Source: Eubacteriales bacterium (GTDB lineage Bacteria; Bacillota; Clostridia; Oscillospirales; CAG-272). Taken from it: a stretch of DNA of 36,433 nt. The translations under genes were made by a program, and so were the position numbers. The notes under the pieces were generated by a model that saw only the letters and a list, made by a program, of their open reading frames with translations, did not search any database and had not been told where the DNA came from. The stretch is taken from assembly GCA_045659845.1 (NCBI GenBank), contig JAZRCQ010000294.1, positions 1-36,433 of the forward strand, written 5' to 3'. Positions 2,052 to 14,424 of the stretch are shown one piece after another. Numbering within the stretch: the stretch's first letter is position 1; each line of letters starts with the position of its first letter.

Positions 2052-2483
2052 TCAGAGCTTTTTAATATCGTCCTCGGAGATCATTCTGAAGCCTGCGGCC
2101 GTCAAGGCAGCCTCAGCCACTGCATTGTCCTCCACTCGCAGCACCACGTAGGCATGCCGCTCGGTGCGCGCCATGAAGGCATACATATATTCCACGTTGA
2201 TATCCTCCCGATCCAGCACGGAAAGAGCCTCGGTGAGCTTGCCGGGAGCATCCCCGATCTTCACGCCCACCACGTCGATCACCTTGATCAGATAGCCCTT
2301 TTTCGCAAGCACGGCCTCAGCGGTCTCCGGATCATTCACGATCAGGCGCAGGATTCCGAAATCCTGCGTTTCCGCAATGGAAAGTGCTCTCAGGTTCACT
2401 CCACAATCGGAAAGTGCCTCGGTAACCGATGCCACCGTTCCCTTTTTGTTCTGAACGAACACCGTTAATTGCTTGATTGCCAT
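2052..2483 (-). CDS. ACT-domain protein (tandem ACT, small-ligand/amino-acid-binding regulatory fold)
   Basis: Start moved to MAIKQLTVFVQNKKGTVASV (cat 2481-2483), with an AGGAGA RBS at complement 2491-2496. Two ACT-like repeats are present (LTVFVQNKKGTVA... and VVGVKIGDAPGKL...). The longer ORF-track N-terminus overlaps paaK and has no RBS. Confidence 0.8.
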   Translation of the reverse strand: MAIKQLTVFVQNKKGTVASVTEALSDCGVNLRALSIAETQDFGILRLIVNDPETAEAVLAKKGYLIKVIDVVGVKIGDAPGKLTEALSVLDREDINVEYMYAFMARTERHAYVVLRVEDNAVAEAALTAAGFRMISEDDIKKL

Positions 2484-2499
2484 AGCTGCCTCTCCTTTC

Positions 2500-3810
2500 T
2501 TAAATGAGCTTACGCTTATCGACCACGCGAACGGCCTTGCCCTCGCTTCTTGCAATGCTCTTGGGCGGAACGAGATGCACCAGCGGATTGATGCCCAGCA
2601 TGGTTTTGATCGCATTGGCAAGAGATTTTTCCATCGCCATGATCTCGCTCACCTTATCCGTGAAGCGTTCTGCCGTCATCTCCACGTTCACGTCGAAGGT
2701 ATCGTTGTTCTTCACGCGGTCCACCACGATCTGATAATTGGGCTCATAGCCCTCCTTGAGCAGCACTGTTTCGATCTGGCTGGGGAACACGTTCACGCCG
2801 CGGATGATCAGCATATCGTCGGTTCTGCCCATGGGCTTGGCCATCTTGATCAGCGTGCGGCCGCAGGAGCACTTCTTGCGGGAGAGCACACAAATGTCGC
2901 GGGTGCGATAGCGGAGCAGGGGGAACGCCTCCTTATCCAAGGAGGTGAACACCAGCTCACCCTTGCTTCCCTCGGGAAGCACCTCACCCGTTTCGGGATC
3001 AATGATCTCGGCAAAGAAATGATCCCCGTTGATATGCATGCCGCTCTGCTCACTGCATTCAAAGGCAACGCCGGGGCCGGTGGTCTCGGTGAGGCCGTAG
3101 ATATCGTAGGCCTTGATGCCCAGCAATTTTTCGATGCTTTGGCGCATCTCCTCCGTCCACCGCTCAGCGCAGAAGATGCCTGCCTTCAGCGGCATATCCT
3201 CCGGCCGGTAGCCCTGCTCCTTCAGGCTCTCGCCCAGATAGGCGGCGTAGGAGGGGGTGCAGCAAAGAATGGTGGCATTCAGATCCATCATGAACTGGAT
3301 CTGGCGCTCGGTGTTGCCCGAGGAAAGCGGCAGCGTGAGGCATCCAACCTTATGGGAGCCGCCGTTCAGGCCGGGGCCGCCGGTGAACAGGCCGTAGCCG
3401 TAGGCCACCTGGCAAACGTCCTTCTTCGAGCCGCCAACGGCAACGATCGCGCGGGCGCAGCAATCCTCCCAAAGATCGAGATCCTTCTGCGTGTAGAAGG
3501 CAACCACGCGGCGGCCGGTGGTTCCGGAGGTGGACTGAATGCGAACGCAATCCTCCAGCGGCTTCGCCAACAGACCGTAGGGATAGGCGTCGCGAAGATC
3601 GGCCTTGGAAAGGAACGGAAGCTTGTGGAGATCGTCGATGCTCTGAATATCCTCCGGTCGAACGCCTTTCTGATCCATCAGATCCCGATAGTAGGCAACG
3701 TTTTCATAAACGTGCCTGACCTGCTTGATCAGCTTCTCCGATTGGAGCTTTTTCATCTCCTCACGGGGCATGGTTTCAATTTCCTTTTGGAAATAGCGTT
3801 GCTGTTCCAT
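2500..3810 (-). CDS. paaK: Phenylacetate--CoA ligase (PaaK-family adenylate-forming enzyme)
   Basis: 436 aa. N-terminal MPREEMKKLQSEKLIKQVRHVYENVAYYRDLM...LPFLSKADLRD, the SSGTTGR P-loop (QSTSGTTGRRV), YGLTE and RYRTRD motifs are hallmarks of the PaaK/CoF420-ligase-like subfamily. Confidence 0.85.
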   Translation of the reverse strand: MEQQRYFQKEIETMPREEMKKLQSEKLIKQVRHVYENVAYYRDLMDQKGVRPEDIQSIDDLHKLPFLSKADLRDAYPYGLLAKPLEDCVRIQSTSGTTGRRVVAFYTQKDLDLWEDCCARAIVAVGGSKKDVCQVAYGYGLFTGGPGLNGGSHKVGCLTLPLSSGNTERQIQFMMDLNATILCCTPSYAAYLGESLKEQGYRPEDMPLKAGIFCAERWTEEMRQSIEKLLGIKAYDIYGLTETTGPGVAFECSEQSGMHINGDHFFAEIIDPETGEVLPEGSKGELVFTSLDKEAFPLLRYRTRDICVLSRKKCSCGRTLIKMAKPMGRTDDMLIIRGVNVFPSQIETVLLKEGYEPNYQIVVDRVKNNDTFDVNVEMTAERFTDKVSEIMAMEKSLANAIKTMLGINPLVHLVPPKSIARSEGKAVRVVDKRKLI

Positions 3811-3865
3811 TGTTAAACACCCTTTCTGATTCTGAGCTTTTCACTCGATTTTGGCTCGGAGTGAG

Positions 3866-4164
3866 AAAACAAAAACGTCCTCCGCATTCCGACAGGGCAA
3901 GGCCCCAAGAACACAGAGGACGAGAAATATTCTTTCCCGTGGTACCACCTCAGTTCGCCGCCACCTCACGGTTGCGACCTTTTCAGGTACTGACATACCA
4001 TAGTTCTATGACGGGAACTCCCGTTGCATCCTACTACGGATCTCTCCGATTCAGCGCACTGCTAACAGAATGAATTCGAGAAGGACGCCCCCTCTGTCTC
4101 GCACCGCCCGACAGCTCTCTCCAGGTTCTTTCCAGCCTACTGGTTTCTGCTCTCCGCATTTGAT
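3866..4164 (-). promoter_or_regulatory. T-box riboswitch, specifier UUC (Phe), leader of paaK-ACT
   Basis: All elements read on the minus strand:
- S-turn AGUA at complement 4138-4141;
- AG bulge AGAGAG at complement 4115-4120;
- distal loop GGUGCGA at complement 4099-4105;
- specifier loop GAA-UUC-A at complement 4071-4077, followed by helix UUCUG pairing with CAGAA;
- T-box motif GAGGUGGUACCACGGG at complement 3937-3952, with antiterminator A1 GAGG/CCUC and A2 ACGGGAAA/UUUCUCGU;
- competing terminator CGUCCUC...GAGGACG + UUUUU at complement 3871-3924. Confidence 0.85.
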
Positions 4165-4170
4165 ATTCGC

Positions 4171-4199
4171 ATTATACCACCTTTATGCGCATCTGTCAA
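4171..4199 (-). promoter_or_regulatory. Sigma-70-type promoter TTGACA-N17-TATAAT for the Phe T-box/paaK operon
   Basis: Minus strand cTTGACAgatgcgcataaaggtggTATAATg. The -35 box is at complement 4194-4199 and the -10 box at complement 4171-4176. Confidence 0.65.
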
Positions 4200-4301: not shown

Positions 4302-4330
4302 TTGACAAAAAGAGGAAGATATGATATAAT
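4302..4330 (+). promoter_or_regulatory. Sigma-70-type promoter TTGACA-N17-TATAAT for the Leu T-box operon, divergent from the paaK promoter
   Basis: ttgaca (4302-4307), 17-nt spacer ending in tga, tataat (4325-4330). Confidence 0.65.
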
Positions 4331-4336
4331 GCTAAA

Positions 4337-4615
4337 TCATAAACGCGATGATGCGGAATAGTATGCAAAAGGATTCGCCTTCAGAGAATTGCCGGCCGGT
4401 GCGAGGCATGGGAAGAGCTTTGCAGAACTCACCGTTGAGCGGTTGCCATGAAATTGCAGAGTAGTGGCAAACGGGAGCTCCCGTCACAGAGTCAAGATGT
4501 GTCAGCATCGAAGGTGCATCCCGCATCGGGATGAAGAAGAGTGGTACCGCGGAAACACGAGGATCGGCGTTTTCGTCTCTTTGAAGCAACAAAGAGATGG
4601 AAGCGTGTTTTTGTT
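4337..4615 (+). promoter_or_regulatory. T-box riboswitch, specifier CUC (Leu)
   Basis: - K-turn GAUGA at 4347-4351;
- S-turn AGUA at 4360-4363;
- AG bulge AGAGA at 4383-4387;
- distal loop GGUGCGA at 4398-4404;
- specifier loop GAA-CUC-A at 4425-4431, flanked by helix UGCAAAAG/CUUUGCA above and GCGG/CCGU below;
- T-box motif AGAGUGGUACCGCGG at 4538-4552;
- terminator stem 4568-4605 (core UCUCUUUG/CAAAGAGA) followed by UUUUU at 4608-4612. Confidence 0.88.
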
Positions 4616-4660
4616 GCATCACCGGTCCCGAATTTCCAAGCTTGAAAGGAGCATTCCATC

Positions 4661-6049
4661 ATGAGACAGATCAACGTAGCCGACATCACCCTCAAAAAGC
4701 TTTCGGAGGATCGCGCAGTTTCCCTGCTGTTCCGCGAGAAATCCGCTATTGCCAATTGCGCCGACCGTCTCGGTGCAAACTGCATCGAGCTGCCCCCCGT
4801 GAAGAACGTGCGCGAGGATTCTATCATCTATAAGACCATTGCGAAAAATGTTCGGAGCGCCGCGCTGGCCATTCCCGTTGGCTACACCGCCGACGACGTT
4901 GCCGTTGCATGGGAATGCATCCGCGAGGCCAAGGCTCCCCGTCTGCAGGTGGAGCTTCCCGTTTCCACCATTCAAATGGAATACACCTATCACGTGAAGC
5001 AATCCAAAATGCTGGAAAAGATCGGCGAGCTGGTTGCCGCCGCAAAAGCTCTCTGCTCCGACGTGGAGTTCTCCGCGCTGGATGCCACCAGAGCCGACGA
5101 GGAATTTCTGATCGCCGCCGTGCGGGAGGCCGAGGCGAAGGGCGCATCCGTCATCACGATCTGTGATAACGCCGGTGCATCCACTCCCGATCAGATCGGC
5201 GAGCTCACTCAAAAGGTGAAGGCGACCGTGTCCGTTCCCGTGTACGTTCAAGTGTCCGATCGCGTGAGCATGGCAGTTGCATCCGCGTTTTCCGCCATTG
5301 CCTGCGGTGCCGACGGACTCAAGAGCGCCATGGCGGGCAAGGATGCTCTGCTGACGGGGGCACTCTCCGACGCCATGAATGCCTGCGGCGCGCGGCTCGA
5401 CGCGGCAATCAGCCTGAACAGCACCAATATCCACGCCAGCATCGAGGATCTGAAGGCAGGCATCCGCCATGAGGCCGATGAGACCGAGTCCTCTGAAAGC
5501 GAGCAGAAGCGGATCCTGCTGGATTCCGATTCCACTCTGGCGCAGGTGGCCGACACGGCCGCTCTTCTGGGCTACGAGCTTTCGGATTCCGATATTGGAA
5601 ACGTTTATAAGGCGCTGTCGCAGGTCTGTGCGCGCAAGGGTGCCGTTGGAGCCAAGGAGCTGGAGGCTCTGATCGCAAGCTCCGCCATGCAGGCTCCCTC
5701 CACCTATCATTTTGAAACCTACACCACCACCAGCAGCAATATCTCCAGCGCAATGACGCAGATCGTTCTGAAGAACAACAATGAATGCATCTGCGGCGTC
5801 AGCGCAGGCGACGGCCCCATCGATTCCGCCTTCCGCGCCATCGAGCAATGTGTGGGCCATCACTATGAGCTGGACGATTATCAGGTGCAGTCGGTCACCG
5901 AGGGCAAGGAGGCTCTGGGCTCCGCCTTGGTGAAGCTTCGCTACAACGGCAGGCTCTATTCCGGAAACGGCACCTCCACCGATATCATCGCCGCCAGCAT
6001 CCGCGCCTATATCAACGCACTCAACAAGATCGTTTTTGAGGAGGCATGA
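4661..6049 (+). CDS. 2-isopropylmalate synthase-like protein with degenerate catalytic motifs and an intact LeuA C-terminal regulatory domain (probable pseudoenzyme)
   Basis: 462 aa, with AAAGGAG RBS at 4645-4651. The HMGL-like TIM-barrel layout is recognisable (FSALDATRAD, ITICDNAGAS). The DTTLRDGEQ motif reads ADITLKKLSED, and the HxH metal site reads VQVSDRVSMAVAS. The C-terminal GDGPIDSAFRAIEQ...VTEGKEALGSALVKLRYNGRLYSGNGTSTDIIAASIRAYINALNK matches the LeuA allosteric/dimerisation domain. Confidence 0.7.
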   Translation: MRQINVADITLKKLSEDRAVSLLFREKSAIANCADRLGANCIELPPVKNVREDSIIYKTIAKNVRSAALAIPVGYTADDVAVAWECIREAKAPRLQVELPVSTIQMEYTYHVKQSKMLEKIGELVAAAKALCSDVEFSALDATRADEEFLIAAVREAEAKGASVITICDNAGASTPDQIGELTQKVKATVSVPVYVQVSDRVSMAVASAFSAIACGADGLKSAMAGKDALLTGALSDAMNACGARLDAAISLNSTNIHASIEDLKAGIRHEADETESSESEQKRILLDSDSTLAQVADTAALLGYELSDSDIGNVYKALSQVCARKGAVGAKELEALIASSAMQAPSTYHFETYTTTSSNISSAMTQIVLKNNNECICGVSAGDGPIDSAFRAIEQCVGHHYELDDYQVQSVTEGKEALGSALVKLRYNGRLYSGNGTSTDIIAASIRAYINALNKIVFEEA

Positions 6050-6055
6050 TCCAGC

Positions 6056-8515
6056 ATGAAAATCGTTTTTTCCACTAAAAACGTGAGCCGAGCCTCCTTT
6101 CTCGACACCTGCCGCATTGCTCACGACTACGGCTTCGAGGGCTTTGAGATCTATGATGCCGTTGGCGAACGGAGCGTTCACTCCGACAGCGTTCTGAGAC
6201 GCGACAAAATGGCCGATGCCAAAAGAAAGCTCGTCAACCGAAATCTGGCCGTTTCCGCGCTTCGGATGCCCCATCCCGTGGAGCATGCGGAAACCACAGC
6301 GGAGCTGATCCAAAAATATGTGGATATGGCCGCCACGGCAGGCATTGAAAACGTGATCGTTCGTGCAGAAGCCCCCGTTTCCTTTGCGCTTCTGGATGAA
6401 AAAATGGCTGCGGCGATCAAGCGGGCGGAGCAAGCAGGAGTTGGCATCCTGCTGGAAACCGTTGGCAGTCTGGCGAGAACCGAAAACGTGATCGCTATCA
6501 TCAATCACTTCGCCTCTGCCGCCATCGGAGCCTCCTGGAACGTTCGCGGCACCTATTTCGATGCGGGCGAAACCGCTGAGGTGACCATCAAAAATCTGGG
6601 CGCCTACATCCGCTACGTTCGTCTCGGAGACATGAAGGACGGCAAGACCGTTCTGATCGGCGAGGGCGATCTGGACGTGAAAAAGCTCCTCAACGCCCTT
6701 TCCTCTCTCAACTACGAGGGCTTCATCTGCGCCGCATGGAACGAGGAGATCAACGATGCCGACATCGTGTTGACTCATTTTACCAATTACATTTCTGCGC
6801 TGGGACGTGAAAAAAAGTCCTTTGATCACGCATACTATAATCGGGCGAAAACCGGCACCTTCGTATGGAAAAAATACGATGTGATCGAGGCCACCTTCGC
6901 CGACGTGCTGGACACCATGGCCGAACGGTATCCCGATCAGTATGCCTTCAAGTACCCCACGCTGGACTACACCCGAACCTACGAGCAGTTCCGCCGCGAC
7001 GTGGACGAATGCGCCGCCGCCCTCATTTCCTTGGGCGTGAAGGCCGGTGATCACGTGGCGATCTGGGCCACCAACGTGCCCCAATGGTTCATCACCTTCT
7101 GGGCCACCACCAAGATCGGCGCCGTGTTGGTTACCGTGAACACCGCCTATAAGATCCACGAGATCGAATATCTGCTCAAGCAATCCGACACCCACACCCT
7201 CGTGATGGTGGAATATTGCAAGGATATCAACTATAAGGAGATCATCGAGCAGCTCTGTCCCGAGCTGAAGGCGCTCCATCCGGGCGATCCCCTCTATTCC
7301 AAGAATCTTCCCTTCCTGCGCAACGTTGTGACCGTTGGCTTCGGCATGGACGGTTGTCTCACCTGGGAGCAAATGCTCTCCCGCTCTGCCCTCGTGCCCC
7401 GTGAGGAGGTTCGCCGCCGCGCTTCCCTTGTGAAGCCCGACGACGTTTGCAATATGCAATACACCTCGGGAACCACCGGCTTCCCCAAGGGCGTGATGCT
7501 CACCCATCGCAACATCGTGAACAACGGAAAGACCATCGGCGACAGAATGGATCTCTCCACGGCCGATCGCATGATGATCCAAGTGCCCATGTTCCATTGC
7601 TTCGGCATGGTGCTTTCCATGACCTCCATGATGACTCACGGCGGCACGCTCTGCCCCATTCCCTATTTCTCGCCCAAATCCTCTCTTGCCTGCGTGAACG
7701 ATGAGCGCATCACCTGCTTCAACGGTGTGCCCACCATGTTCATTGCTATGTTCAATCATCCCGATTTTGCCAAGACCGACTTTTCCTATATGAGAACCGG
7801 AATCATGGCAGGAGCAAACTGCCCCGCCGATCTGATGCGCCGCGCATCCGAGGAAATGAATATGCGGGAGATCATCTCCGTGTACGGCCAGACCGAGGCC
7901 TCCCCCGGATGCACCATGGGCGAGGTGAACGAGGATCTGGACCATCGCGTGGAAACCGTTGGCAGTGCCTTCCCCGGCGTGGAATGCAAGATCATTGATC
8001 CGGAAACCGGCGACGAGCTTCCCGACGGCGAAAGCGGCGAGTTCGTGGCACGCGGCTTCAACATCATGAAGGGCTACTACAAAATGCCTGAGGCCACGGC
8101 GCAGGCCATCGATGCCAACGGCTGGCTCCACTCGGGCGACATCTGCATGAGAACCCCCGACGGCTACTATAAGGTGACGGGCCGCCTCAAGGATATGATC
8201 ATCCGCGGCGGAGAAAATCTCTATCCTCGCGAAATCGAGGAATTCTACCTCACAAATCCCAAGATCCGCGACGTTCAGGTGGTTGGCGTGCCCGACGAGA
8301 CCTACGGCGAGGAATGCTGTGCATGGGTGATCCTGCACAAGGGAGAAACCGCCGATGAAAAGGAAATGAAGGCCTTCGGTGCCGCATCCATTGCCAAGCA
8401 CAAGGTGCCCAGATACTTCCTCTTCGTGAATGAATTCCCCATGAACGCCGCCGGAAAGATCCTGAAATACAAGATGCGTGAGGAATCCGCTGAAAAGCTG
8501 GGATTGAAAAAATAA
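6056..8515 (+). CDS. Fusion protein: N-terminal xylose-isomerase-like TIM barrel (AP endonuclease 2 family) + C-terminal AMP-forming acyl-CoA synthetase
   Basis: 819 aa, with a GAGGAGG RBS. Residues ~1-250 (GFEGFEIY..., GILLETVG, YIRYVRLGD, GEGDLD, GFICAAWN) resemble sugar-phosphate isomerase/epimerase-type TIM barrels. Residues ~270-819 carry the ANL motifs YTSGTTGFPKGV, YGQTE, GWLHSGD, GRLKDMIIRGGENLYP and the terminal GKILK. Confidence 0.78.
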   Translation: MKIVFSTKNVSRASFLDTCRIAHDYGFEGFEIYDAVGERSVHSDSVLRRDKMADAKRKLVNRNLAVSALRMPHPVEHAETTAELIQKYVDMAATAGIENVIVRAEAPVSFALLDEKMAAAIKRAEQAGVGILLETVGSLARTENVIAIINHFASAAIGASWNVRGTYFDAGETAEVTIKNLGAYIRYVRLGDMKDGKTVLIGEGDLDVKKLLNALSSLNYEGFICAAWNEEINDADIVLTHFTNYISALGREKKSFDHAYYNRAKTGTFVWKKYDVIEATFADVLDTMAERYPDQYAFKYPTLDYTRTYEQFRRDVDECAAALISLGVKAGDHVAIWATNVPQWFITFWATTKIGAVLVTVNTAYKIHEIEYLLKQSDTHTLVMVEYCKDINYKEIIEQLCPELKALHPGDPLYSKNLPFLRNVVTVGFGMDGCLTWEQMLSRSALVPREEVRRRASLVKPDDVCNMQYTSGTTGFPKGVMLTHRNIVNNGKTIGDRMDLSTADRMMIQVPMFHCFGMVLSMTSMMTHGGTLCPIPYFSPKSSLACVNDERITCFNGVPTMFIAMFNHPDFAKTDFSYMRTGIMAGANCPADLMRRASEEMNMREIISVYGQTEASPGCTMGEVNEDLDHRVETVGSAFPGVECKIIDPETGDELPDGESGEFVARGFNIMKGYYKMPEATAQAIDANGWLHSGDICMRTPDGYYKVTGRLKDMIIRGGENLYPREIEEFYLTNPKIRDVQVVGVPDETYGEECCAWVILHKGETADEKEMKAFGAASIAKHKVPRYFLFVNEFPMNAAGKILKYKMREESAEKLGLKK

Positions 8516-8538
8516 CGATCACAATCTGTGGAGGCGCA

Positions 8539-8970
8539 ATGTATTTTGACGATCTTCAAATCGGAATGACGGTGGACATTGATTCCACCGTCATCGAAAA
8601 AGAAAAAATGATGGAGTTTGCCCGCGTTTACGATCCGATACCGCTGCATACCGATGAGGAATATGCTCGGTCTACCCCCTTCGGCGATCTGATCGCCCCC
8701 GGCATGATGTCGTTTATGTCCCTGTGGGCAAAGTATCTGGAGGTCGATTTCTTCGGCAAGGAGCTTTTGGCCGGAAAATCCACCAGGATCGAATGGCTCA
8801 AGCCCGTTTATGCCAACGACAGCTTATCGGGCAGGGCCACCATCACGGCATTGACGAAGAGAAATGACAAAAACGGTTTGGCCGAAATCTCCATCTATGC
8901 CTACAATCAAAAGGGAGAGCCGGTGCTGACAAACGTTACGGAGGCGATCGTAAAGTGCAAGCCGAGCTGA
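8539..8970 (+). CDS. MaoC-like (R)-specific enoyl-CoA hydratase/dehydratase, hotdog fold
   Basis: 143 aa with a GGAGG RBS. FARVYDPIPLHTDEEYARSTPFGDLIAPGMM matches the MaoC dehydratase motif (D-x-N/P-P-x-H-x-D ... G-x-I-A-x-G). Confidence 0.75.
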   Translation: MYFDDLQIGMTVDIDSTVIEKEKMMEFARVYDPIPLHTDEEYARSTPFGDLIAPGMMSFMSLWAKYLEVDFFGKELLAGKSTRIEWLKPVYANDSLSGRATITALTKRNDKNGLAEISIYAYNQKGEPVLTNVTEAIVKCKPS

Positions 8971-9060: not shown

Positions 9061-9348
9061 AAATTTGAATATCAAAAAAGACTGTGATGAAGAGGATCGG
9101 AAAGCAATGCTTCCAGAGAGTTGTCGGGCGGTGCGAGACAATAACAGAGACTTCCATATGATCTATCACTTCTGAGTCGAAGGACCGAACCCGGGGCATT
9201 CCCCTGTCAGTAGACTCCTTCCGTATTGCTGCGTCAAAGCAAAGGGCTTGTTGGAGTCCGGAAAGTGACGGAATTGAATTCCGTAATTTGAGTGGTACCG
9301 CGGGTGAATAGCTCGTCTCAAGGGTTTTCTTTTGAGACGAGTTTTTTG
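9061..9348 (+). promoter_or_regulatory. T-box riboswitch, specifier probably AUC (Ile); assignment uncertain
   Basis: - K-turn GUGAUGA at 9084-9090;
- AG bulge AGAGAG at 9115-9120;
- distal loop GGUGCGA at 9130-9136 (the block gtcgggcggtgcgagaca is identical to the Phe T-box);
- T-box motif GAGUGGUACCGCGGG at 9290-9304, with A1 UUGAG/CUCAA;
- terminator CUCGUCUCA...UGAGACGAG + UUUUUU at 9311-9348.
The 3' side of Stem I reads ...AUG AUC U AUC A CUUC UGAGUC. AUC-A (9165-9168) sits directly before the 4-bp helix (GAAG/CUUC) and the K-turn, the same layout as in the other two leaders. No clean AGUA/GAA S-turn is visible. Confidence 0.8.
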
Positions 9349-9413: not shown

Positions 9414-11714
9414 ATGGATTACAGCTTGAAAGAGGTTGCAAGAAGAATTAGGGATCTACGCGAGGCCAAGGGCTACTCCCCTGCCGAGCTTGCAAGACTC
9501 ACCGGCGTTTCCCTTGAGGATTACACGCTTTTGGAGGAAGGAAACACCGACTTCAGCTTCACCTTCATTTATAAATGCGCAAAGGCCTGCGGCGTTGAGG
9601 TGGTTGACATTCTGGAGGGAAGCAGCACCACCCTCACCTCCTTCGCCATCACCCGCAAGGGCGAAGGCCTCAAGATCCTGAAGCAGCACGGCGTGGAATA
9701 CAACAATCTCGCACCCAAGTTCAAGGAGAAGCTCGCCGAGCCCTTCCTCGTGAAATTCCCTTACATCCCCGAGGAGCAAAACGTGCCGATGAAGCTCAAC
9801 TCCCACAACGGTCAGGAATTCGACGTGATCGTGAAGGGCTCGCTGAAGGTGCAGATCGGAAGCCACGTGGACGTGCTTCATGAGGGTGATTCCATTTTCT
9901 ATAACAGCTTGATCCCCCACGGCATGATCGCCGCAAGCGAGGGCGGTTGCGAATTCCACGCGGTGGTTCTCAATCCGCAGAACGGTCAGGTGAGCGAGGA
10001 ATATCCCGAGGCGCCCTACGTTGCGGCGAGAGTGGCCGAAAAGGCAGAGGAAACCGCCACGGTTGCCGATCAGTTCGTAACCTCCACCTACGATGAAAAC
10101 GGCGTTTTCAACGGCATTTCCTTCAAAAACGACGATCAATTCAACTTCGCCTTCGACTGCGTGGACGCCATTGCGAAAAAGAATCCCGATAAGCTTGCAA
10201 TGCTTTGGGTTGGCAACGATAAGAGCGACCGTCGCTTCACCTTTGCCGACATGAAGAAATATTCTGCCAAGACAGCAAACTATTTCGAGTCTCTCGGCAT
10301 CAAAAAGGGCGACACCGTGATGCTGGTGCTGAAGCGTCATTACCAATTCTGGTTCTGCATGCTGGCACTGCATAAGATCGGCGCCATCGCGATCCCCGCC
10401 ACCAATCAGCTGGTGGAGCATGACTTCGCTTACAGATATCAGGCCGCCAAGGTGAAGGCGATCGTTTGCACCGCCGATGGCGACGTTTCCTCCGAGGCCG
10501 AAAAGGCCGCCGCTCAGTTCCCCGGCCTGCTCAAGGTGCTTGTTGGCGGCAAGAAAGAAGGCTGGAATGATTTCAACGTGGAAATGGAACGCTTCAGCAC
10601 CCATTATTACCGCACCGAGCAAACGCCCTGCGGCAATGATCCCATGCTGATGCTCTTCACCTCGGGCACCACGGGCTATCCCCGCATCGCCACCCACTCC
10701 TATAAATATGCGCTGGGCCACTACCCCACCGCCAAGCATTGGCACAACGTCAAAGCCAACGGCCTGCACTTCACCATCTCCGATACGGGATGGGGCAAGG
10801 CGCTCTGGGGCAAGCTCTACGGTCAGTGGCTCTGCGAGGCCGGGATCTTCACCTACGATTTCGATCGCTTCCGCTCCGAGGATATTCTGCCCATGTTCAA
10901 GAAATACGGCATCACCACCTTCTGCGCTCCTCCCACCATGTATCGCTTCTTCATCAAGGAGGATCTCTCCAAATATGATCTTTCCTCCATTGAATATGCC
11001 ACCACGGCAGGCGAGGCGCTGAACCCCGAGGTGTTCAACCAGTTCAAGAAGGCCACCGGACTCACCATCATGGAGGGCTTCGGGCAAACCGAAACCACCC
11101 TTTCCATTGCAAACTTCGTTGGCTCCACGCCCAAGATCGGATCGATGGGTAAGCCCAGCCCGCTCTACGACGTGGTGGTGCTGGATCCCGACGGCAACGA
11201 ATGCAAGACCGGCGACACGGGCGAGATCTGCATCCGCACAAAGGATCATATTCCCTGCGGTCTCTTCATCGGCTACTATCTGGATGAGGAAAAAACGCGC
11301 GACGCCTGGTACGACGGCTATTATCACACCGGCGATCAGGCCACCATGGACGAGGACGGCTATCTCTGGTACGTCGGCCGCATCGACGATGTGATCAAGT
11401 CCTCCGGCTACCGCATCGGGCCCTTTGAGATCGAAAGCGTGATCATGGAGCTTCCCTACGTGCTGGAATGCGCCATCACGCCCGTTCCCGACGAGGTGCG
11501 CGGTCAGATCGTGAAGGCCACCATCGTGCTGACAAAGGGCACCGTTGGCACCGACGCGCTGAAAAAGGAGATTCAGGAGTACGTGAAAACGCACACCGCT
11601 CCCTATAAGTACCCCCGCATCGTTGAGTTTGTGGAGGAGCTTCCCAAGACGATCAGCGGAAAGGTGCGCCGCGTGGAGATCCGCAAAAACGATCTGGAAA
11701 AAATGAAAAAATAA
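9414..11714 (+). CDS. Fusion protein: XRE-type HTH + cupin domain fused to a medium-chain (ACSM/MACS-like) AMP-forming acyl-CoA synthetase
   Basis: 766 aa. Residues 1-~65 form an HTH_3 domain (LREAKGYSPAELARLTGVSLEDYTLLEEG). Residues ~90-190 form a cupin (NSHNGQEFDVIVKGSLKVQIG...GDSIFYNSLIPHGM). Residues ~230-766 carry FTSGTTGYPR, TISDTGWGKALWGKLY, EGFGQTE, YHTGDQA, GRIDDVIKSSGYRIGPFEIE and the terminal SGKVRR, typical of medium/short-chain acyl-CoA synthetases. Confidence 0.8.
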   Translation: MDYSLKEVARRIRDLREAKGYSPAELARLTGVSLEDYTLLEEGNTDFSFTFIYKCAKACGVEVVDILEGSSTTLTSFAITRKGEGLKILKQHGVEYNNLAPKFKEKLAEPFLVKFPYIPEEQNVPMKLNSHNGQEFDVIVKGSLKVQIGSHVDVLHEGDSIFYNSLIPHGMIAASEGGCEFHAVVLNPQNGQVSEEYPEAPYVAARVAEKAEETATVADQFVTSTYDENGVFNGISFKNDDQFNFAFDCVDAIAKKNPDKLAMLWVGNDKSDRRFTFADMKKYSAKTANYFESLGIKKGDTVMLVLKRHYQFWFCMLALHKIGAIAIPATNQLVEHDFAYRYQAAKVKAIVCTADGDVSSEAEKAAAQFPGLLKVLVGGKKEGWNDFNVEMERFSTHYYRTEQTPCGNDPMLMLFTSGTTGYPRIATHSYKYALGHYPTAKHWHNVKANGLHFTISDTGWGKALWGKLYGQWLCEAGIFTYDFDRFRSEDILPMFKKYGITTFCAPPTMYRFFIKEDLSKYDLSSIEYATTAGEALNPEVFNQFKKATGLTIMEGFGQTETTLSIANFVGSTPKIGSMGKPSPLYDVVVLDPDGNECKTGDTGEICIRTKDHIPCGLFIGYYLDEEKTRDAWYDGYYHTGDQATMDEDGYLWYVGRIDDVIKSSGYRIGPFEIESVIMELPYVLECAITPVPDEVRGQIVKATIVLTKGTVGTDALKKEIQEYVKTHTAPYKYPRIVEFVEELPKTISGKVRRVEIRKNDLEKMKK

Positions 11715-11747
11715 AGCGGCTTCTGCATCTTTCGCAGAGCCGGATCA

Positions 11748-11786
11748 AAAAGGAGCTGAGTCGGAATTCGACTCAGCTCCTTTTTC
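11748..11786. terminator. Bidirectional rho-independent terminator between convergent genes
   Basis: aaaaGGAGCTGAGTCGgaattCGACTCAGCTCCttttt: a 12-bp perfect stem flanked by an A-run and a T-run. Confidence 0.8.
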
Positions 11787-11800
11787 CAAAGCCGTTTGAA

Positions 11801-12358
11801 TTATAATTTATCGAACCGTTTCATAACTCTGACGAGCCGCGGCCGATTATAGCGCTGAAGGATCACAAAAACGGAATCGATCAGCATGGCACAAACCGAC
11901 GTTGTAATCATTGCCGCCGTACCGCCCAGAAGCGGTGCAAAGGCGATCGGCAGAAGGCTCAGCACCATGATCACCTCGTGAATGATCTCCGCCTGACAGG
12001 TTGCGCCGATCAATTCCCGAACGGTTTTTCGATGGGGATCAAACGTTTCAGGATCGTAGGTTGGAACGTATTTTTTCCATCTTCGCACTCGGATCAGCTT
12101 ATATAGCTTATCCTCAAAGCTTTTTTCGCGAAACCATCCGTTTGTGTGGTCGGCTTGATTTTTCATGACCAGATCCACAATCGTTCCAACGGCTAGCCGC
12201 ATGGCAAAATGATATAGTGTTACTCCAACCGTGACGGTGAGCGCTTCCGCAACGGCATTTTGAGAAAGGAGGCATACAGGCAGAAGTCCCGCAAATCCAA
12301 GCGCAAGGAATACGGTTGTTAAAATCATTCGTTTTCTCAATGGCTTACCCTCTTCCAT
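11801..12358 (-). CDS. Small polytopic membrane protein, possibly glycosyl-4,4'-diaponeurosporenoate acyltransferase (CrtO)-like family
   Basis: 185 aa with 4 predicted TM segments. The RVRRWKKYVPTYDPETF ... QAEIIHEV ... LQRYNRPRL pattern resembles that family from memory. GC content is lower than in neighbouring genes. Confidence 0.4.
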   Translation of the reverse strand: MEEGKPLRKRMILTTVFLALGFAGLLPVCLLSQNAVAEALTVTVGVTLYHFAMRLAVGTIVDLVMKNQADHTNGWFREKSFEDKLYKLIRVRRWKKYVPTYDPETFDPHRKTVRELIGATCQAEIIHEVIMVLSLLPIAFAPLLGGTAAMITTSVCAMLIDSVFVILQRYNRPRLVRVMKRFDKL

Positions 12359-12637
12359 TTTTGATTTGCCAAGCTCATTATATCACATTTTTGTTAACAA
12401 ATCAAAGCATAGCCTTGTATATCACCCGCAACTTGTTGCACGATGAAATCCGCCTCTCTTTATCCTTGCGAAGCAAGATTTCATCGCATAGCGATTTCAT
12501 CCACGAAGTGGATTTATCCCGTCCGTAAGGACGGATTTAACTGAAAAGGATACAAAATTCTAATGGGTGCATTTTAGGGTTAATGGGTGCATAAACGGAT
12601 GAATTTTTCAAAAATGGGGGCAATTTAACGATAGGTT

Positions 12638-14065
12638 TCAAAAATTATTATTTTTTGATTTGTTAAGTTGATTTTTGATTATTTCATACGCCACTTTATC
12701 GTCTTTAAATTTGTAAAGTTTGAATTTTGACCAAGTTGTTTGAATAATTATCCTTTTATTGTATTCAACTGCAAGGATATTTTGATAATCACAATTAAAC
12801 GAAATATTGTATCCATCGTGCTTTAATCCATTCTCATATATTTCAATGCATTTAGAATCGCTATATCCGGATTTCTTATCCCTTGTATAACCTATCAGAG
12901 ATGAAATCAATACAAGTAATGATACACACAAAGAAGCTCCGAGACCCATGATTAAATACACAATCCATTTCATTTGTGGATTTAAAAGTTGGATTATTAC
13001 CCATATTCCATTATTAAACAATAATATTGAGATCAAAATTTGAATCATCAAACGCCACTGATGAATTGTGCTATATTTATGCTTATATATCAAGTCACCG
13101 TAATCATGCTCATACTCATCAAAATCATCATATATAGGATATTGATCGAAATGAAGACCATATTCTTTACATCTATTTTGAAATAGCAACACTTTGTCTG
13201 CTAATTTGTTTTGACGTTTTCTGTTATTTACATATTTACAAAAACTATAAACGATATCATTGCTGAAAATGAGACAACGTTGCATTATATCATCATTCTC
13301 TATATACCCTAACACATTTCTTTGCTTGAAATCTAAAATATCATTAATAGAATTATTAATTTCAATCCAACCGGAATTGGTTTTGATTGTAAGATTATTT
13401 TCAGAAACGCTATATTCAAATTTTTTGATATCGATTTTTCTCTCAAATATAGACTTAAACTCTACATGTCTTGCTATTAATATTTTTTCTTCTGCACCTG
13501 ACATAGGGGCAAAAGAAAATTCTATACAGCCATCAGCTATACGCATATCACAATGAGAAAATATTTGCCCAAACTCCAAAGAGCTTTTGACGATACCTTT
13601 ACATTTTAAAACTATGAAGGAGCCCCAAGATGTATCCAAAAGTATCTCAAGTGTATTATTCTCTTCGTTTATTCCTAAAACATATCCATCGTGGAATGAA
13701 CCCGAATTTAAATCCAATGCATCAAAATCGGATGTTTTCTCAATTTTTTTAAATTCGCAAAGGCTCTCCGCGCGCAACATCCCCTTTGCTTCATCGAGCA
13801 TTTTTGAGGTGTATTGCTTTCTCTTGATTGTTCTAAAAATATTCTTATCGTTCCAATATGATTTAAACTCGCTATTATTAATAGAAAAATCATCAGTATC
13901 AAAATCTATAAAAAGAACGGTATATCTGTTATCTCTACAAACATCAACAACAATCAACTCGGCAAAAGAGCTGTCAAAAACAACAGCTTTGCTCGGATAT
14001 TTCATAGATACGGCAAAAACAGGCGAATGGTATACACAGCCGTTAGACAGTATTTTTGCGAGCAT
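12638..14065 (-). CDS. Hypothetical protein, AT-rich orphan; soluble N-terminal region, TM hairpin, then a small C-terminal PH-like (bPH/DUF304-type) module
   Basis: 475-aa uninterrupted ORF in very AT-rich DNA, Asn/Lys/Ile/Phe-rich. AAGGAGAAAA RBS. It has its own TTGAAA-N17-TATAAT promoter. Two hydrophobic helices (WRLMIQILISILLFNNGIWVIIQLL, WIVYLIMGLGASLCVSLLVLISSLIGY) are followed by ~80 aa. I recognise no family for the first ~330 aa. Confidence 0.6.
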   Translation of the reverse strand: MLAKILSNGCVYHSPVFAVSMKYPSKAVVFDSSFAELIVVDVCRDNRYTVLFIDFDTDDFSINNSEFKSYWNDKNIFRTIKRKQYTSKMLDEAKGMLRAESLCEFKKIEKTSDFDALDLNSGSFHDGYVLGINEENNTLEILLDTSWGSFIVLKCKGIVKSSLEFGQIFSHCDMRIADGCIEFSFAPMSGAEEKILIARHVEFKSIFERKIDIKKFEYSVSENNLTIKTNSGWIEINNSINDILDFKQRNVLGYIENDDIMQRCLIFSNDIVYSFCKYVNNRKRQNKLADKVLLFQNRCKEYGLHFDQYPIYDDFDEYEHDYGDLIYKHKYSTIHQWRLMIQILISILLFNNGIWVIIQLLNPQMKWIVYLIMGLGASLCVSLLVLISSLIGYTRDKKSGYSDSKCIEIYENGLKHDGYNISFNCDYQNILAVEYNKRIIIQTTWSKFKLYKFKDDKVAYEIIKNQLNKSKNNNF

Positions 14066-14339: not shown

Positions 14340-14424
14340 TGGTGCGGAAAACGGGACTTGAACCCGTACGGTGTGAACCACACGCCCCTCAAACGTGCGC
14401 GTCTGCCAGTTCCGCCACTTCCGC
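14340..14424 (-). tRNA. tRNA-Leu (anticodon GAG), class II with long variable arm, CCA encoded
   Basis: Reverse complement reads GCGGAAGTGGCGGAACTGGCAGACGCGCACGTTTGAGGGGCGTGTGGTTCACACCGTACGGGTTCAAGTCCCGTTTTCCGCACCA.
- Acceptor stem GCGGAAG/UUUCCGC;
- anticodon stem CACGU/GCGUG with loop UU-GAG-GG;
- T arm ACGGG-UUCAAGU-CCCGU;
- discriminator A. Confidence 0.92.

Follow-up and report, generated by a model that had tools for sequence, protein, structure and literature searches.

The paaK-ACT operon and its leader

The window (the whole stretch of 36,433 nt that we analysed) carries on its minus strand a two-gene operon, in which a gene for a paaK-family aryl-acetate (phenylacetate)-CoA ligase (3810-2500; 436 aa, with the Pfam domains AMP-binding and AMP-binding_C_2) is followed by one for a tandem-ACT (ACT-pair) protein (2483-2052; 143 aa). 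The ligase matches PDB entries 2Y27, 2Y4O and 4R1L over residues 5-434 with E-values of about 1e-120 (6e-121 for 4R1L, from B. thetaiotaomicron), and 2Y27 and 4R1L are solved phenylacetate-CoA ligases homologous to it. Against TIGR02155 it scores 514.3 bits across the full length, which is below the NCBIfam equivalog cut-off of 646.3, and its substrate is therefore only putatively phenylacetate; the predicted reaction is phenylacetate + ATP + CoA -> phenylacetyl-CoA + AMP + PPi. The second protein matches PF19571 (ACT_8) over residues 1-142 with 88.7 bits (Pfam cut-off 23.5) and the B. thetaiotaomicron ACT-pair protein in PDB 2F06 with an E-value of 6e-24. The paaK stop is followed 16 nt later by the ATG of its gene (2483), which has a ribosome-binding site of its own. 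The operon ends at an intrinsic terminator (2039-2004, minus strand; -27.6 kcal/mol, z = -4.4), after which AAAAUUUUUUU comes next, and the promoter of a PadR gene (1983-1955, minus strand) lies beyond it. These Pfam, PDB and folding results bear out the gene pair and the bounding terminator that an earlier note had proposed from the letters alone. That note had also found no iorAB-type oxidoreductase adjacent, which holds for the entire window: neither a 2-oxoacid:ferredoxin oxidoreductase (iorAB) gene nor an aminotransferase gene is present across the 36 kb, so the route from phenylacetate to Phe is incomplete as seen here. Conserved antisense ORFs chosen by longest-ORF calling (e.g. 4619-8401 and 2473-3816) were dropped under a codon-usage score.

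Upstream of paaK lies a sigma-70-type promoter (4199-4171, minus strand) that matches the consensus at 12/12 positions (TTGACA-17 nt-TATAAT, with a TG extension). Starting 8 nt past the -10 hexamer, a match to the T-box family RF00230 (4163-3913, minus strand) covers the entire model (positions 1-219) with 87.1 bits and an E-value of 1.4e-19 for a 551-nt stretch; this is the check that the earlier note had suggested for the leader, and the score is 6 bits short of the Rfam gathering score of 93. Six orthologous paaK leaders score 100.6-115.3 bits, over that threshold. When the whole window was scanned at the gathering threshold, a T-box with a Leu specifier was recovered alone, the paaK leader and an Ile T-box being missed; these two were recovered by Rfam in E-value mode on sub-regions.

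According to the covariance model (CM) alignment, Stem I (4157-4061, minus strand) contains the AGUA, AGAGA and GGUGCGA distal-loop motifs and the specifier loop. The specifier is UUC (Phe; 4074-4072, minus strand), the same triplet in the same GAA-UUC-A context as had been read before, and the order is GAA, UUC, A and then the UUCUG strand of a CAGAA/UUCUG helix. Stem II, a IIA/B region and Stem III follow, as do the T-box sequence and antiterminator (3951-3916, minus strand), comprising a GAGG/CCUC helix, a 7-nt UGGUACC bulge and an 8-bp upper helix; on its own this element folds canonically at -10.6 kcal/mol. The UGGU of the bulge fits the discriminator A73 of tRNA-Phe. The leader terminator (stem 3921-3877, U-tract 3876-3868, minus strand) folds at -36 kcal/mol (z = -4.1, with 0/200 shuffles equally stable), and the 5' strand of its stem shares nucleotides with the 3' strand of the antiterminator, making the two structures mutually exclusive. 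A simple terminator scan had flagged the upper antiterminator helix as a terminator, and missed both the leader terminator (loop over the length limit) and the operon-end terminator (U-run beginning too distant from the stem); direct folding gave the real ones. The earlier claim that every canonical T-box element is present stands for the specifier, the AGAGA and GGUGCGA motifs, the antiterminator and the terminator, with a small qualification at the base and middle of Stem I. The GA (kink-turn) motif is degenerate, as its strands (5' GGAGAG and 3' UUAGC, the latter UGAGC in some clade members) permit one G.A-type pair at most, and the middle helix is weak, with two mismatches in the window and 61% of cells pairing across the clade under the Rfam assignment.

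Conservation and covariation of the leader

Related loci were taken as the matches listed in a genome scan, all at least 82% identical, which gave 80 loci and 78 informative genomes. The relatives are ruminant-gut Acutalibacteraceae/Oscillospirales, with about 60 species-level genomes carrying the T-box, paaK and ACT gene, and it is this clade that the sample represents. The source of the window is likewise a ruminant-gut lineage, from the habitat where Phe formation from phenylacetate was first described. Among the matches listed, the ACT gene follows paaK at nearly all of the 80 loci, and a T-box precedes the pair in 61 of the 78 informative genomes. Of 60 orthologous leaders that were aligned, 59 carry UUC as the specifier and one, at locus L025, has UGC; none of the 60 has a Tyr or Trp specifier ahead of paaK. 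At loci L033 and L044 a regex reading had been wrong, and alignment gives UUC. The nucleotide after the specifier is C, and not the usual purine, in 25/60 leaders.

The T-box 14-mer GGUGGUACC is invariant across the 60 aligned leaders, and AGAGA and GGUGCGA are nearly so. Moreover, 93.2% of cells at paired positions are able to pair, compared with ∼40% in slid controls, and compensatory (double) changes occur at 36 of 60 base pairs; none of 500 shuffles matched the observed pairing and covariation values. For these counts the Rfam Stem I pairs were used in place of a long-range helix proposed by RNAalifold, which would join the distal loop of Stem I to the T-box sequence and was dropped because its columns are nearly invariant and show essentially no covariation. 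On either side of the specifier, the flanking helix shows pairing in 100% of cells, with covariation at 3/5 pairs, and CAGAA/UUCUG, CAGGA/UCCUG, CGGAA/UUCCG and CAAGA/UCUUG all occur around a nearly constant UUC. For the terminator helix the pairing figure is 97.8% of cells. Additionally, many species with conserved leaders (e.g. L004, L017 and L026) have a Stem I that hardly differs from that of the window. The paaK T-box is under strong purifying selection with covariation.

Neighbouring T-boxes and gene neighbourhoods

Two further acyl-CoA ligases within the same 10 kb as paaK stand behind T-boxes of their own. The first is a divergent Leu T-box (4339-4583, plus strand; RF00230, 124.1 bits) with the specifier CUC, which is repeated in L005, L025 and L040; it precedes genes (4661-8970, plus strand) for a LeuA-like protein, a TIM-barrel/acyl-CoA-ligase fusion and a MaoC dehydratase. 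The last of these, a 143-aa ORF after the ligase, had been considered as a second ACT protein and was rejected, as it shows no similarity. The second is an Ile T-box (9075-9323, plus strand; RF00230, 86.9 bits, E-value 1.4e-19) with the specifier AUC, repeated in L028, L029, L042 and L069, ahead of an acyl-CoA ligase fused to an N-terminal HTH and cupin module (9414-11714, plus strand). The ligase domain of this protein matches PDB 3ETC (E-value 1e-202, 678 bits) and, under the equivalog cut-off of 850, NCBIfam MbcS (447 bits). The 3ETC enzyme, MacsMa, prefers 2-methylbutyrate (PMC10455477), which S. aureus MbcS is also reported to use and which PMC7356843 gives as a known rumen precursor of Ile. 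By analogy, the pairing of an Ile T-box with a homologue of 2-methylbutyrate-CoA ligases supports a parallel logic, whereby the ligase would act on the acid one carbon short of the amino acid. At L010 and L015, a closely related T-box with the Tyr specifier UAC controls a neighbouring SSS transporter.

The recurrent neighbours of paaK-ACT are iorAB, aro/pheA genes and further T-box-controlled ligases. Among the matches listed, iorA-iorB lies immediately upstream of orthologous paaK-ACT in 23 of 78 informative genomes; these PaaK orthologues are 82-86% identical to that of the window, and the neighbouring oxidoreductase subunits pass the NCBIfam equivalog cut-offs (IorA 733 vs 651, IorB 277 vs 230). 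In nine of the 23 the T-box is placed between iorB and paaK, covering paaK-ACT only and leaving iorAB outside; in the other 14 the cluster has no T-box that could be detected, and nhmmer, Rfam at the gathering threshold and Rfam in E-value mode found none ahead of c4-iorA in the ior-linked relatives. Locus L039 has a second PaaK/ACT pair, 43% identical and with its own iorAB. Furthermore, pheA/aro genes adjoin paaK-ACT at nine loci among the matches listed. At two of these, L023 and L068, only 27-30 nt separate the ACT gene from a DAHP synthase gene or a pheA-aroB-aroC-aroEK-DAHPS string, and paaK-ACT appears to be co-transcribed with these aromatic-biosynthesis genes. The shikimate/pheA route is also present in some of these organisms, so that salvage would not be obligatory. 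Neither the window nor the related loci contain paaABCDE ring-oxidation genes, and no natural-product cluster genes stand beside paaK-ACT in the window or at the 80 loci.

Probable synthesis of phenylalanine from phenylacetate, and comparison with known systems

T-boxes are known to act on genes for tRNA synthetases, for biosynthesis and for uptake, in each case of the amino acid that the specifier names (PMC2494555). We consider it probable that a Phe-specific attenuating T-box controls paaK-ACT and that PaaK, together with IorAB and transamination, makes Phe from phenylacetate, which suggests that the bacterium converts environmental phenylacetate to phenylalanine when Phe is short. The tRNA response, ligase substrate, direction of flux and ACT role that we infer would be as follows. 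With Phe plentiful, charged tRNA-Phe would be unable to stabilize the antiterminator, the terminator at 3921-3877 would form and transcription would halt before paaK. With Phe scarce, uncharged tRNA-Phe (anticodon GAA) would pair with the Stem I specifier, UUC, and its free ACCA end with UGGU in the bulge of the T-box, permitting the antiterminator to form and paaK-ACT to be transcribed. PaaK would then turn gut phenylacetate into phenylacetyl-CoA, with ATP going to AMP and PPi; IorAB (indolepyruvate/arylpyruvate:ferredoxin oxidoreductase), the gene for which would lie elsewhere in the source genome and adjoins paaK in many relatives, would reductively carboxylate this to phenylpyruvate, and transamination would yield phenylalanine. 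As for the ACT-pair protein, its likeliest role is that of a partner that senses a small molecule, e.g. by acting as a Phe-dependent feedback brake on PaaK. The anabolic direction, which the earlier note had favoured, is strengthened by the conserved and covarying UUC T-box, the linkage to iorAB, the aro linkage at L023 and L068 and the parallel of the Ile T-box. The anabolic route had already been put forward, in rumen work from 1965 and in PMC13285125.

An unlikely alternative, equally anabolic, is a general aryl-acetate-CoA ligase that accepts phenylacetate, 4-hydroxyphenylacetate and indoleacetate on behalf of all three aromatic amino acids, the keying to Phe being incidental. The IOR-associated ligases of C. 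difficile and Bacteroides accept all three acids and all three arylpyruvates are IOR substrates (PMC13285125), the window PaaK scores under the PaaK equivalog cut-off, and at L010 and L015 the Tyr T-box is found on the SSS transporter. Such breadth is at odds, however, with the near-uniform UUC specifier and the lack of Tyr or Trp specifiers ahead of paaK in the 60 leaders, and the second PaaK/ACT pair of L039, having its own iorAB, suggests that paralogues divide the labour. It is quite improbable that PaaK-ACT serves aromatic amino-acid breakdown or phenylacetate disposal behind an incidental or vestigial T-box, although annotation conventionally points that way. While paaK is chiefly familiar from the aerobic degradation of phenylacetate, the Bacteroides thetaiotaomicron IOR contributes to phenylacetate formation from Phe (a finding cited in PMC13285125) and no T-box could be detected at 14 iorAB-paaK-ACT clusters, induction of a Phe-degrading enzyme by uncharged tRNA-Phe would be counter-productive. 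Moreover, AMP-forming ligases favour thioester formation, fermentative routes instead using a phosphotransacylase and a kinase (PMC13285125), and the selection acting on the T-box, the linked pheA/aro genes and the missing paaABCDE genes in the window and related loci likewise argue against breakdown. We give very little credence to the proposal that phenylacetyl-CoA feeds a secondary metabolite or an acylation whose demand tracks Phe status: natural-product PaaK-family ligases are found among the matches (AjiA1 and PaaK-like in PDB; BagE/FevW and FlxY in NCBIfam), but they are distant (112-120 bits vs 408 for true PaaK) and no biosynthetic-cluster genes accompany paaK-ACT in the window or at the 80 loci. 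Least credible of all is a leader in decay and no longer functional as a T-box, with paaK-ACT constitutive or silent, as its score below the gathering threshold, degenerate kink-turn and two mismatches in Stem I are set against a perfect promoter, an intact specifier, distal-loop motifs, 14-mer, antiterminator and terminator, and a Stem I nearly identical to those of conserved leaders; the same middle helix is weak throughout the clade, so the low CM score is a matter of model fit.

Few labels of function in bacterial genomes are as reliable as T-box specifiers, and a conserved Phe T-box on paaK-ACT provides independent regulatory evidence on whether gut anaerobes use their widespread IOR/AMP-forming ligase/ACT sets to make aromatic amino acids or to destroy them. 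The direction of these sets bears on models of gut phenylacetate and on ruminant nutrition. Phenylacetate is the precursor of phenylacetylglutamine and, along with branched-chain volatile fatty acids (VFAs), a classic growth factor of fibre-degrading rumen bacteria. The Ile and Leu T-boxes on two nearby acyl-CoA ligases point to a general rule, open to testing, by which orphan ligases could be assigned their substrates. More tentatively, these T-boxes may constitute an acid-salvage regulon in rumen and hindgut Oscillospirales, in which Phe, Ile, Leu and Tyr specifiers would each govern a dedicated ligase or carboxylate transporter feeding the acid one carbon shorter into ferredoxin-dependent reductive carboxylation. 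If this is true, the specifier codon would be a genome-readable substrate label for otherwise unassignable acyl-CoA ligases, the ACT-pair protein would be an amino-acid-sensing allosteric partner of PaaK, and the genes and regulation behind the rumen VFA and phenylacetate growth requirements described 60 years ago would be supplied.

Synthesis of Phe from phenylacetate by rumen bacteria has been known since 1965, and Allison and co-workers (1962-1971) described how phenylacetate, isovalerate, 2-methylbutyrate and isobutyrate are reductively carboxylated to give Phe, Leu, Ile and Val, respectively (both as cited in PMC7356843). The habitat, here that of ruminant-gut Clostridia, and the pairings of acid and amino acid are common to that work and ours; theirs was physiology and isotope labelling, whereas we take the pairing from T-box specifiers. 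To our knowledge, the bacterial ligase genes for rumen acid carboxylation and their regulation were left unassigned in the earlier rumen studies. A Bacteroides IOR-linked AMP-forming ligase has been assayed as an arylacetate-CoA ligase by authors who argue for biosynthesis (PMC13285125, 2026), a direction proposed there for both the Bacteroides IOR-ligase pair and methanogen IOR. The iorAB-paaK clusters of Bacteroides and other anaerobes, some with ACT, share the PaaK family (4R1L) and the ACT-pair family (2F06) with the window; unlike them, paaK-ACT here stands apart from iorAB and forms a transcription unit by itself behind a Phe T-box, and the published anabolic argument is one of enzyme energetics, with regulation not its basis. 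MacsMa and MbcS resemble the 9414-11714 protein in the ligase domain, to which the window protein adds the HTH and cupin module, and the role of MbcS is in making branched-chain fatty acids, not Ile.

Neither paaK nor the ACT gene is named as a T-box target in the main text of the survey PMC2494555 or in the main text and seven supplements of PMC3766115, with Vitreschak 2008 and Gutierrez-Preciado 2009 outside the scope of this comparison. A search of full-text literature gave no paper pairing a T-box with phenylacetate-CoA ligase or indolepyruvate, or a T-box riboswitch with acyl-CoA and specifier. The paaK leader has AGUA, AGAGA, GGUGCGA and GAA-codon-A in common with known RF00230 T-boxes, the Phe types of which precede pheS/pheT and aromatic biosynthesis genes in Firmicutes, and is also like them in Stem II, IIA/B, Stem III, the UGGU bulge for the ACCA end of the tRNA and attenuation. 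It differs from them in its degenerate kink-turn, in the C that follows the specifier in 25/60 clade leaders and in controlling an aryl-acetate-CoA ligase with an ACT protein. The riboswitch class, enzyme family and pathway are all known already and the mechanism is not new; the new part appears to be paaK as a member of the T-box regulon.

The leader and the operon of paaK

A full-length match to the Rfam T-box model RF00230 was found on the minus strand at 4163–3913 (87.1 bits, E-value 1.4e-19 in the stretch searched), 6 bits under the Rfam gathering score; because the leader falls below this score, a default whole-window Rfam scan returned only a T-box on the other strand. The leader is preceded by an extended promoter of perfect consensus (TTGACA, 17 nt, TG-TATAAT; 4199–4171), and the covariance alignment places the specifier UUC at 4074–4072, with GAA on its 5′ side and A on its 3′ side, followed by the UUCUG strand of the CAGAA/UUCUG helix. 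The antiterminator with its 7-nt UGGUACC bulge (3951–3916; −10.6 kcal/mol folded alone) contains the invariant GGUGGUACC, and shares its 3′ strand with a much stronger terminator (stem 3921–3877, U-tract 3876–3868); the whole 3′ region of the leader folds at −36 kcal/mol (z = −4.1). The earlier note had read a Phe T-box with this specifier and context directly from the DNA and had proposed the RF00230 search as a check, and both the element and its triplet were borne out. Its statement that every canonical T-box element is present needs a small qualification, as the kink-turn is degenerate and a helix in Stem I shows a poor fit to the Rfam model.

The operon is the two-gene unit previously described: paaK (3810–2500, minus; 436 aa, AMP-binding and AMP-binding_C_2 domains) and a gene for a tandem-ACT protein (2483–2052, minus; 143 aa, PF19571 ACT pair), closed by a terminator at 2039–2004 (minus; −27.6 kcal/mol, z = −4.4), beyond which lies the promoter of a PadR-family gene. 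PaaK aligns end to end with the phenylacetate-CoA ligases 2Y27 and 2Y4O (Burkholderia cenocepacia) and 4R1L (Bacteroides thetaiotaomicron) with E-values of about 1e-120. Against the NCBIfam equivalog model for PaaK it reaches 514 bits, short of the cut-off of 646; by sequence it belongs to the family, but this score does not certify its exact substrate. The ACT protein is homologous to B. thetaiotaomicron 2F06. The lack of an adjacent gene for an indolepyruvate:ferredoxin oxidoreductase (IOR, encoded by iorAB), also remarked on earlier, extends across the window, as no 2-oxoacid:ferredoxin oxidoreductase gene was found in the whole 36 kb.

Beyond the operon, the promoter of the PadR-family gene (1911–1597, minus) overlaps a 13-nt palindrome, ATCGCAGTGCGAT, at 1972–1960, and a second copy follows the promoter at 1941–1929 (minus); the two are likely PadR operator sites. 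Separately, two antisense ORFs (4619–8401, minus, 1260 aa; 2473–3816, plus, 447 aa) lie opposite real genes and are almost certainly not genes themselves; they exceed the true genes in length and misled longest-ORF gene calling.

Conservation and covariation of the leader

A genome scan with PaaK yielded at least 80 loci, each from a separate species-level genome (PaaK identity 82–90 %), almost all of them ruminant-gut MAGs labelled Acutalibacteraceae, Oscillospiraceae or Clostridia; nearly all carry the ACT gene 3′ of paaK. Of the listed loci, 78 have enough upstream sequence, and a profile built from the leader recovered this T-box immediately 5′ of paaK in 61 of them; six orthologous leaders run through Rfam all exceeded the gathering score (100.6–115.3 bits). 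The specifier column reads UUC in 59 of 60 aligned leaders and is followed by C, not a purine, in 25 of them, whilst the adjoining helix varies only by compensation (CAGAA/UUCUG, CAGGA/UCCUG, CGGAA/UUCCG and CAAGA/UCUUG). When the Rfam Stem I pairs were counted together with the RNAalifold pairs of Stem II, IIA/B, Stem III and the terminator, 93.2 % of cells were paired across the 60 leaders, and both sides had changed in 36 of 60 base pairs. The observed pairing and covariation values were matched by none of 500 shuffles, and sliding the 3′ partners by 1–3 columns lowered pairing to 39–51 %; the poorly fitting Stem I helix is so clade-wide (61 % paired). The conserved leaders, UUC specifier and covariation therefore indicate an element that is real, structurally selected and Phe-specific throughout the clade. 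We consider it nearly certain that the paaK leader is a Phe T-box attenuator; sequence and comparative evidence show paaK and the ACT gene to be controlled by a Phe-specific T-box that attenuates transcription.

One leader (locus L025, 5649–5925) carries UGC (Cys) in place of UUC with the remaining T-box intact, which may reflect an error in sequencing, drift or altered specificity.

Gene neighbourhoods and further T-boxes

Gene orders around paaK form two groups, parted almost cleanly by an unbootstrapped neighbour-joining tree of PaaK. The ior-linked order is acyl-CoA ligase, iorA, iorB, paaK and ACT gene, with a divergent SSS transporter gene; IorA and IorB passed their NCBIfam equivalog cut-offs (733 versus 651 and 277 versus 230, respectively). 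In 14 ior-linked genomes paaK lies directly 3′ of the ior genes, starting 14–56 nt after iorB where iorB was called, and no T-box was detectable in these; in nine, the Phe T-box sits inside an iorB–paaK gap of about 360–460 nt. The stand-alone group, which includes the window, has T-box, paaK and ACT gene by themselves in varied contexts, the T-box being almost always present; 52 genomes have the T-box and paaK in this stand-alone form. In many relatives, the orthologue of the window PaaK is thus tied physically to IOR. Additionally, paaK-ACT adjoins aromatic-biosynthesis genes in nine listed loci: CM/PDT pheA, the aroE-aroK fusion and DAHP synthase (all three confirmed), together with aroB, aroC, aroQ and aroA (labels read from translated sequences). 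A gap of 27 nt lies between the ACT gene and a downstream DAHP synthase gene in one locus (L023), and one of 30 nt between the ACT gene and a downstream pheA-aroB-aroC-aroEK-DAHPS string in another (L068); neither offers much room for a terminator.

Several loci hold further features of their own. Spacers between the ACT gene and pheA or DAHP synthase (L004, 7758–7993; L048, 7751–8061; L079, 7753–8178) contain short Phe/Tyr-rich ORFs, such as MKLIMGRYFFPFGAAYYFGYACFDAEKCL, followed in L004 and L048 by a hairpin and U-tract; the ORFs resemble leader-peptide attenuators of the aromatic-biosynthesis operon. Locus L039 has a second paaK-iorA-iorB-ACT cluster (10110–13300, minus) ∼3 kb from its T-box-paaK-ACT unit, with PaaK 43 % identical (over the 113 residues present in the locus) and ACT 45 % identical, and these paralogous pairs may serve different aryl acids. 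Just upstream of T-box(Phe)-paaK-ACT in L010 and L015, a Phe-like T-box with a Tyr (UAC) specifier (3663–3937 and 3684–3952, respectively) precedes a 518 aa sodium:solute symporter, a candidate transporter of aryl acids or Tyr; iorAB clusters elsewhere carry a divergent transporter gene of this family.

The window carries two more T-boxes, both no further than 6 kb from the paaK leader. The first, divergent from it on the plus strand (4339–4583; RF00230, 124 bits), has the Leu specifier CUC and a perfect promoter (4302–4330), and heads an operon (4302–8970) encoding a short protein resembling LeuA (462 aa, HMGL-like and LeuA_dimer domains, far under all IPMS equivalog cut-offs), an 819 aa protein (6056–8515) in which a xylose-isomerase-like TIM barrel is fused to a PRK12583-like acyl-CoA ligase, and a dehydratase of the MaoC type. 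The same Leu T-box and gene pair occur in L005, L022, L025 and L040. The second, also on the plus strand (9075–9323; 86.9 bits, E-value 1.4e-19; missed at the Rfam gathering threshold), has the Ile specifier AUC and precedes a 766 aa fusion (9414–11714, plus) of an XRE-type HTH, a cupin and an acyl-CoA ligase. Joining a DNA-binding domain to a ligase is unusual in itself, and the fusion is kept in eight members (764–776 aa) at related loci. Its ligase domain matches PDB 3ETC (E-value 1e-202) and NCBIfam MbcS (447 bits); 3ETC is Macs of Methanosarcina acetivorans, whose preferred substrate is 2-methylbutyrate (PMC10455477). The specifier-to-gene pairings of the window T-boxes recur at other loci.

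The sole tRNA gene in the window, tRNA-Leu with anticodon GAG (14340–14424, minus), lies ∼10 kb from the Leu T-box and is the exact reader of its CUC specifier. It adjoins a 475 aa ORF (12638–14065, minus; weak PIN-domain match only) within a low-GC block (12001–14000; 0.34 versus about 0.55 elsewhere in the window) that may be foreign or mobile DNA. A 479–516 aa protein with ACT domains and a metallo-beta-lactamase fold is encoded 3′ of the Ile-T-box ligase in L012, and in L034 its gene directly follows a T-box (1291–1499) whose specifier region aligned as AUC (Ile).

Direction of the pathway and comparison with known systems

By established T-box biology, uncharged tRNA-Phe(GAA) would pair with UUC and its ACCA end with UGGU of the bulge, stabilizing the antiterminator and allowing read-through. 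Homology, gene neighbourhoods and rumen physiology suggest that PaaK would then form phenylacetyl-CoA, which IorAB, presumably encoded elsewhere in the genome, would convert with CO2 and reduced ferredoxin to phenylpyruvate, and an aminotransferase would complete Phe; more speculatively, the ACT pair might sense Phe or an intermediate and modulate the ligase. The anabolic role for PaaK put forward in the earlier note is favoured, indirectly, by the IOR linkage, the adjacency to aro genes and pheA, and the Ile/2-methylbutyrate parallel. We regard the last as the strongest support: Phe/PaaK and Ile/2-methylbutyrate-ligase are two separate cases following the same logic, each pairing an amino acid with the acid one carbon shorter. 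References in PMC7356843 give 2-methylbutyrate, phenylacetate and isovalerate as classical rumen precursors of Ile, Phe and Leu, respectively, and surveyed T-box-controlled genes agree with their own specifiers (PMC2494555). We regard the full anabolic model, with its route from phenylacetate to Phe, as probable.

The novelty is less than had been supposed, as the riboswitch class, ligase family and pathway are all already known, synthesis of Phe from phenylacetate by rumen anaerobes since 1965 according to work cited in PMC7356843. Full-text searches gave no T-box record for paaK or any acyl-CoA ligase, though other T-box surveys may hold an earlier mention, and paaK, phenylacetate and indolepyruvate are absent from the T-box regulon surveys PMC2494555 and PMC3766115 (the latter including seven supplementary files). 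Thus, paaK is apparently a new member of the T-box regulon and brings regulatory evidence to the direction of a debated pathway; a broader possibility is an acid-salvage regulon governed by T-boxes, whose specifiers would label the substrates of orphan ligases. In Bacteroides, an IOR-linked AMP-forming enzyme has been assayed as an arylacetate-CoA ligase and a biosynthetic role proposed, as in methanogens (PMC13285125, 2026); there biosynthesis is argued from energetics, whereas for the paaK described here the evidence is regulatory.
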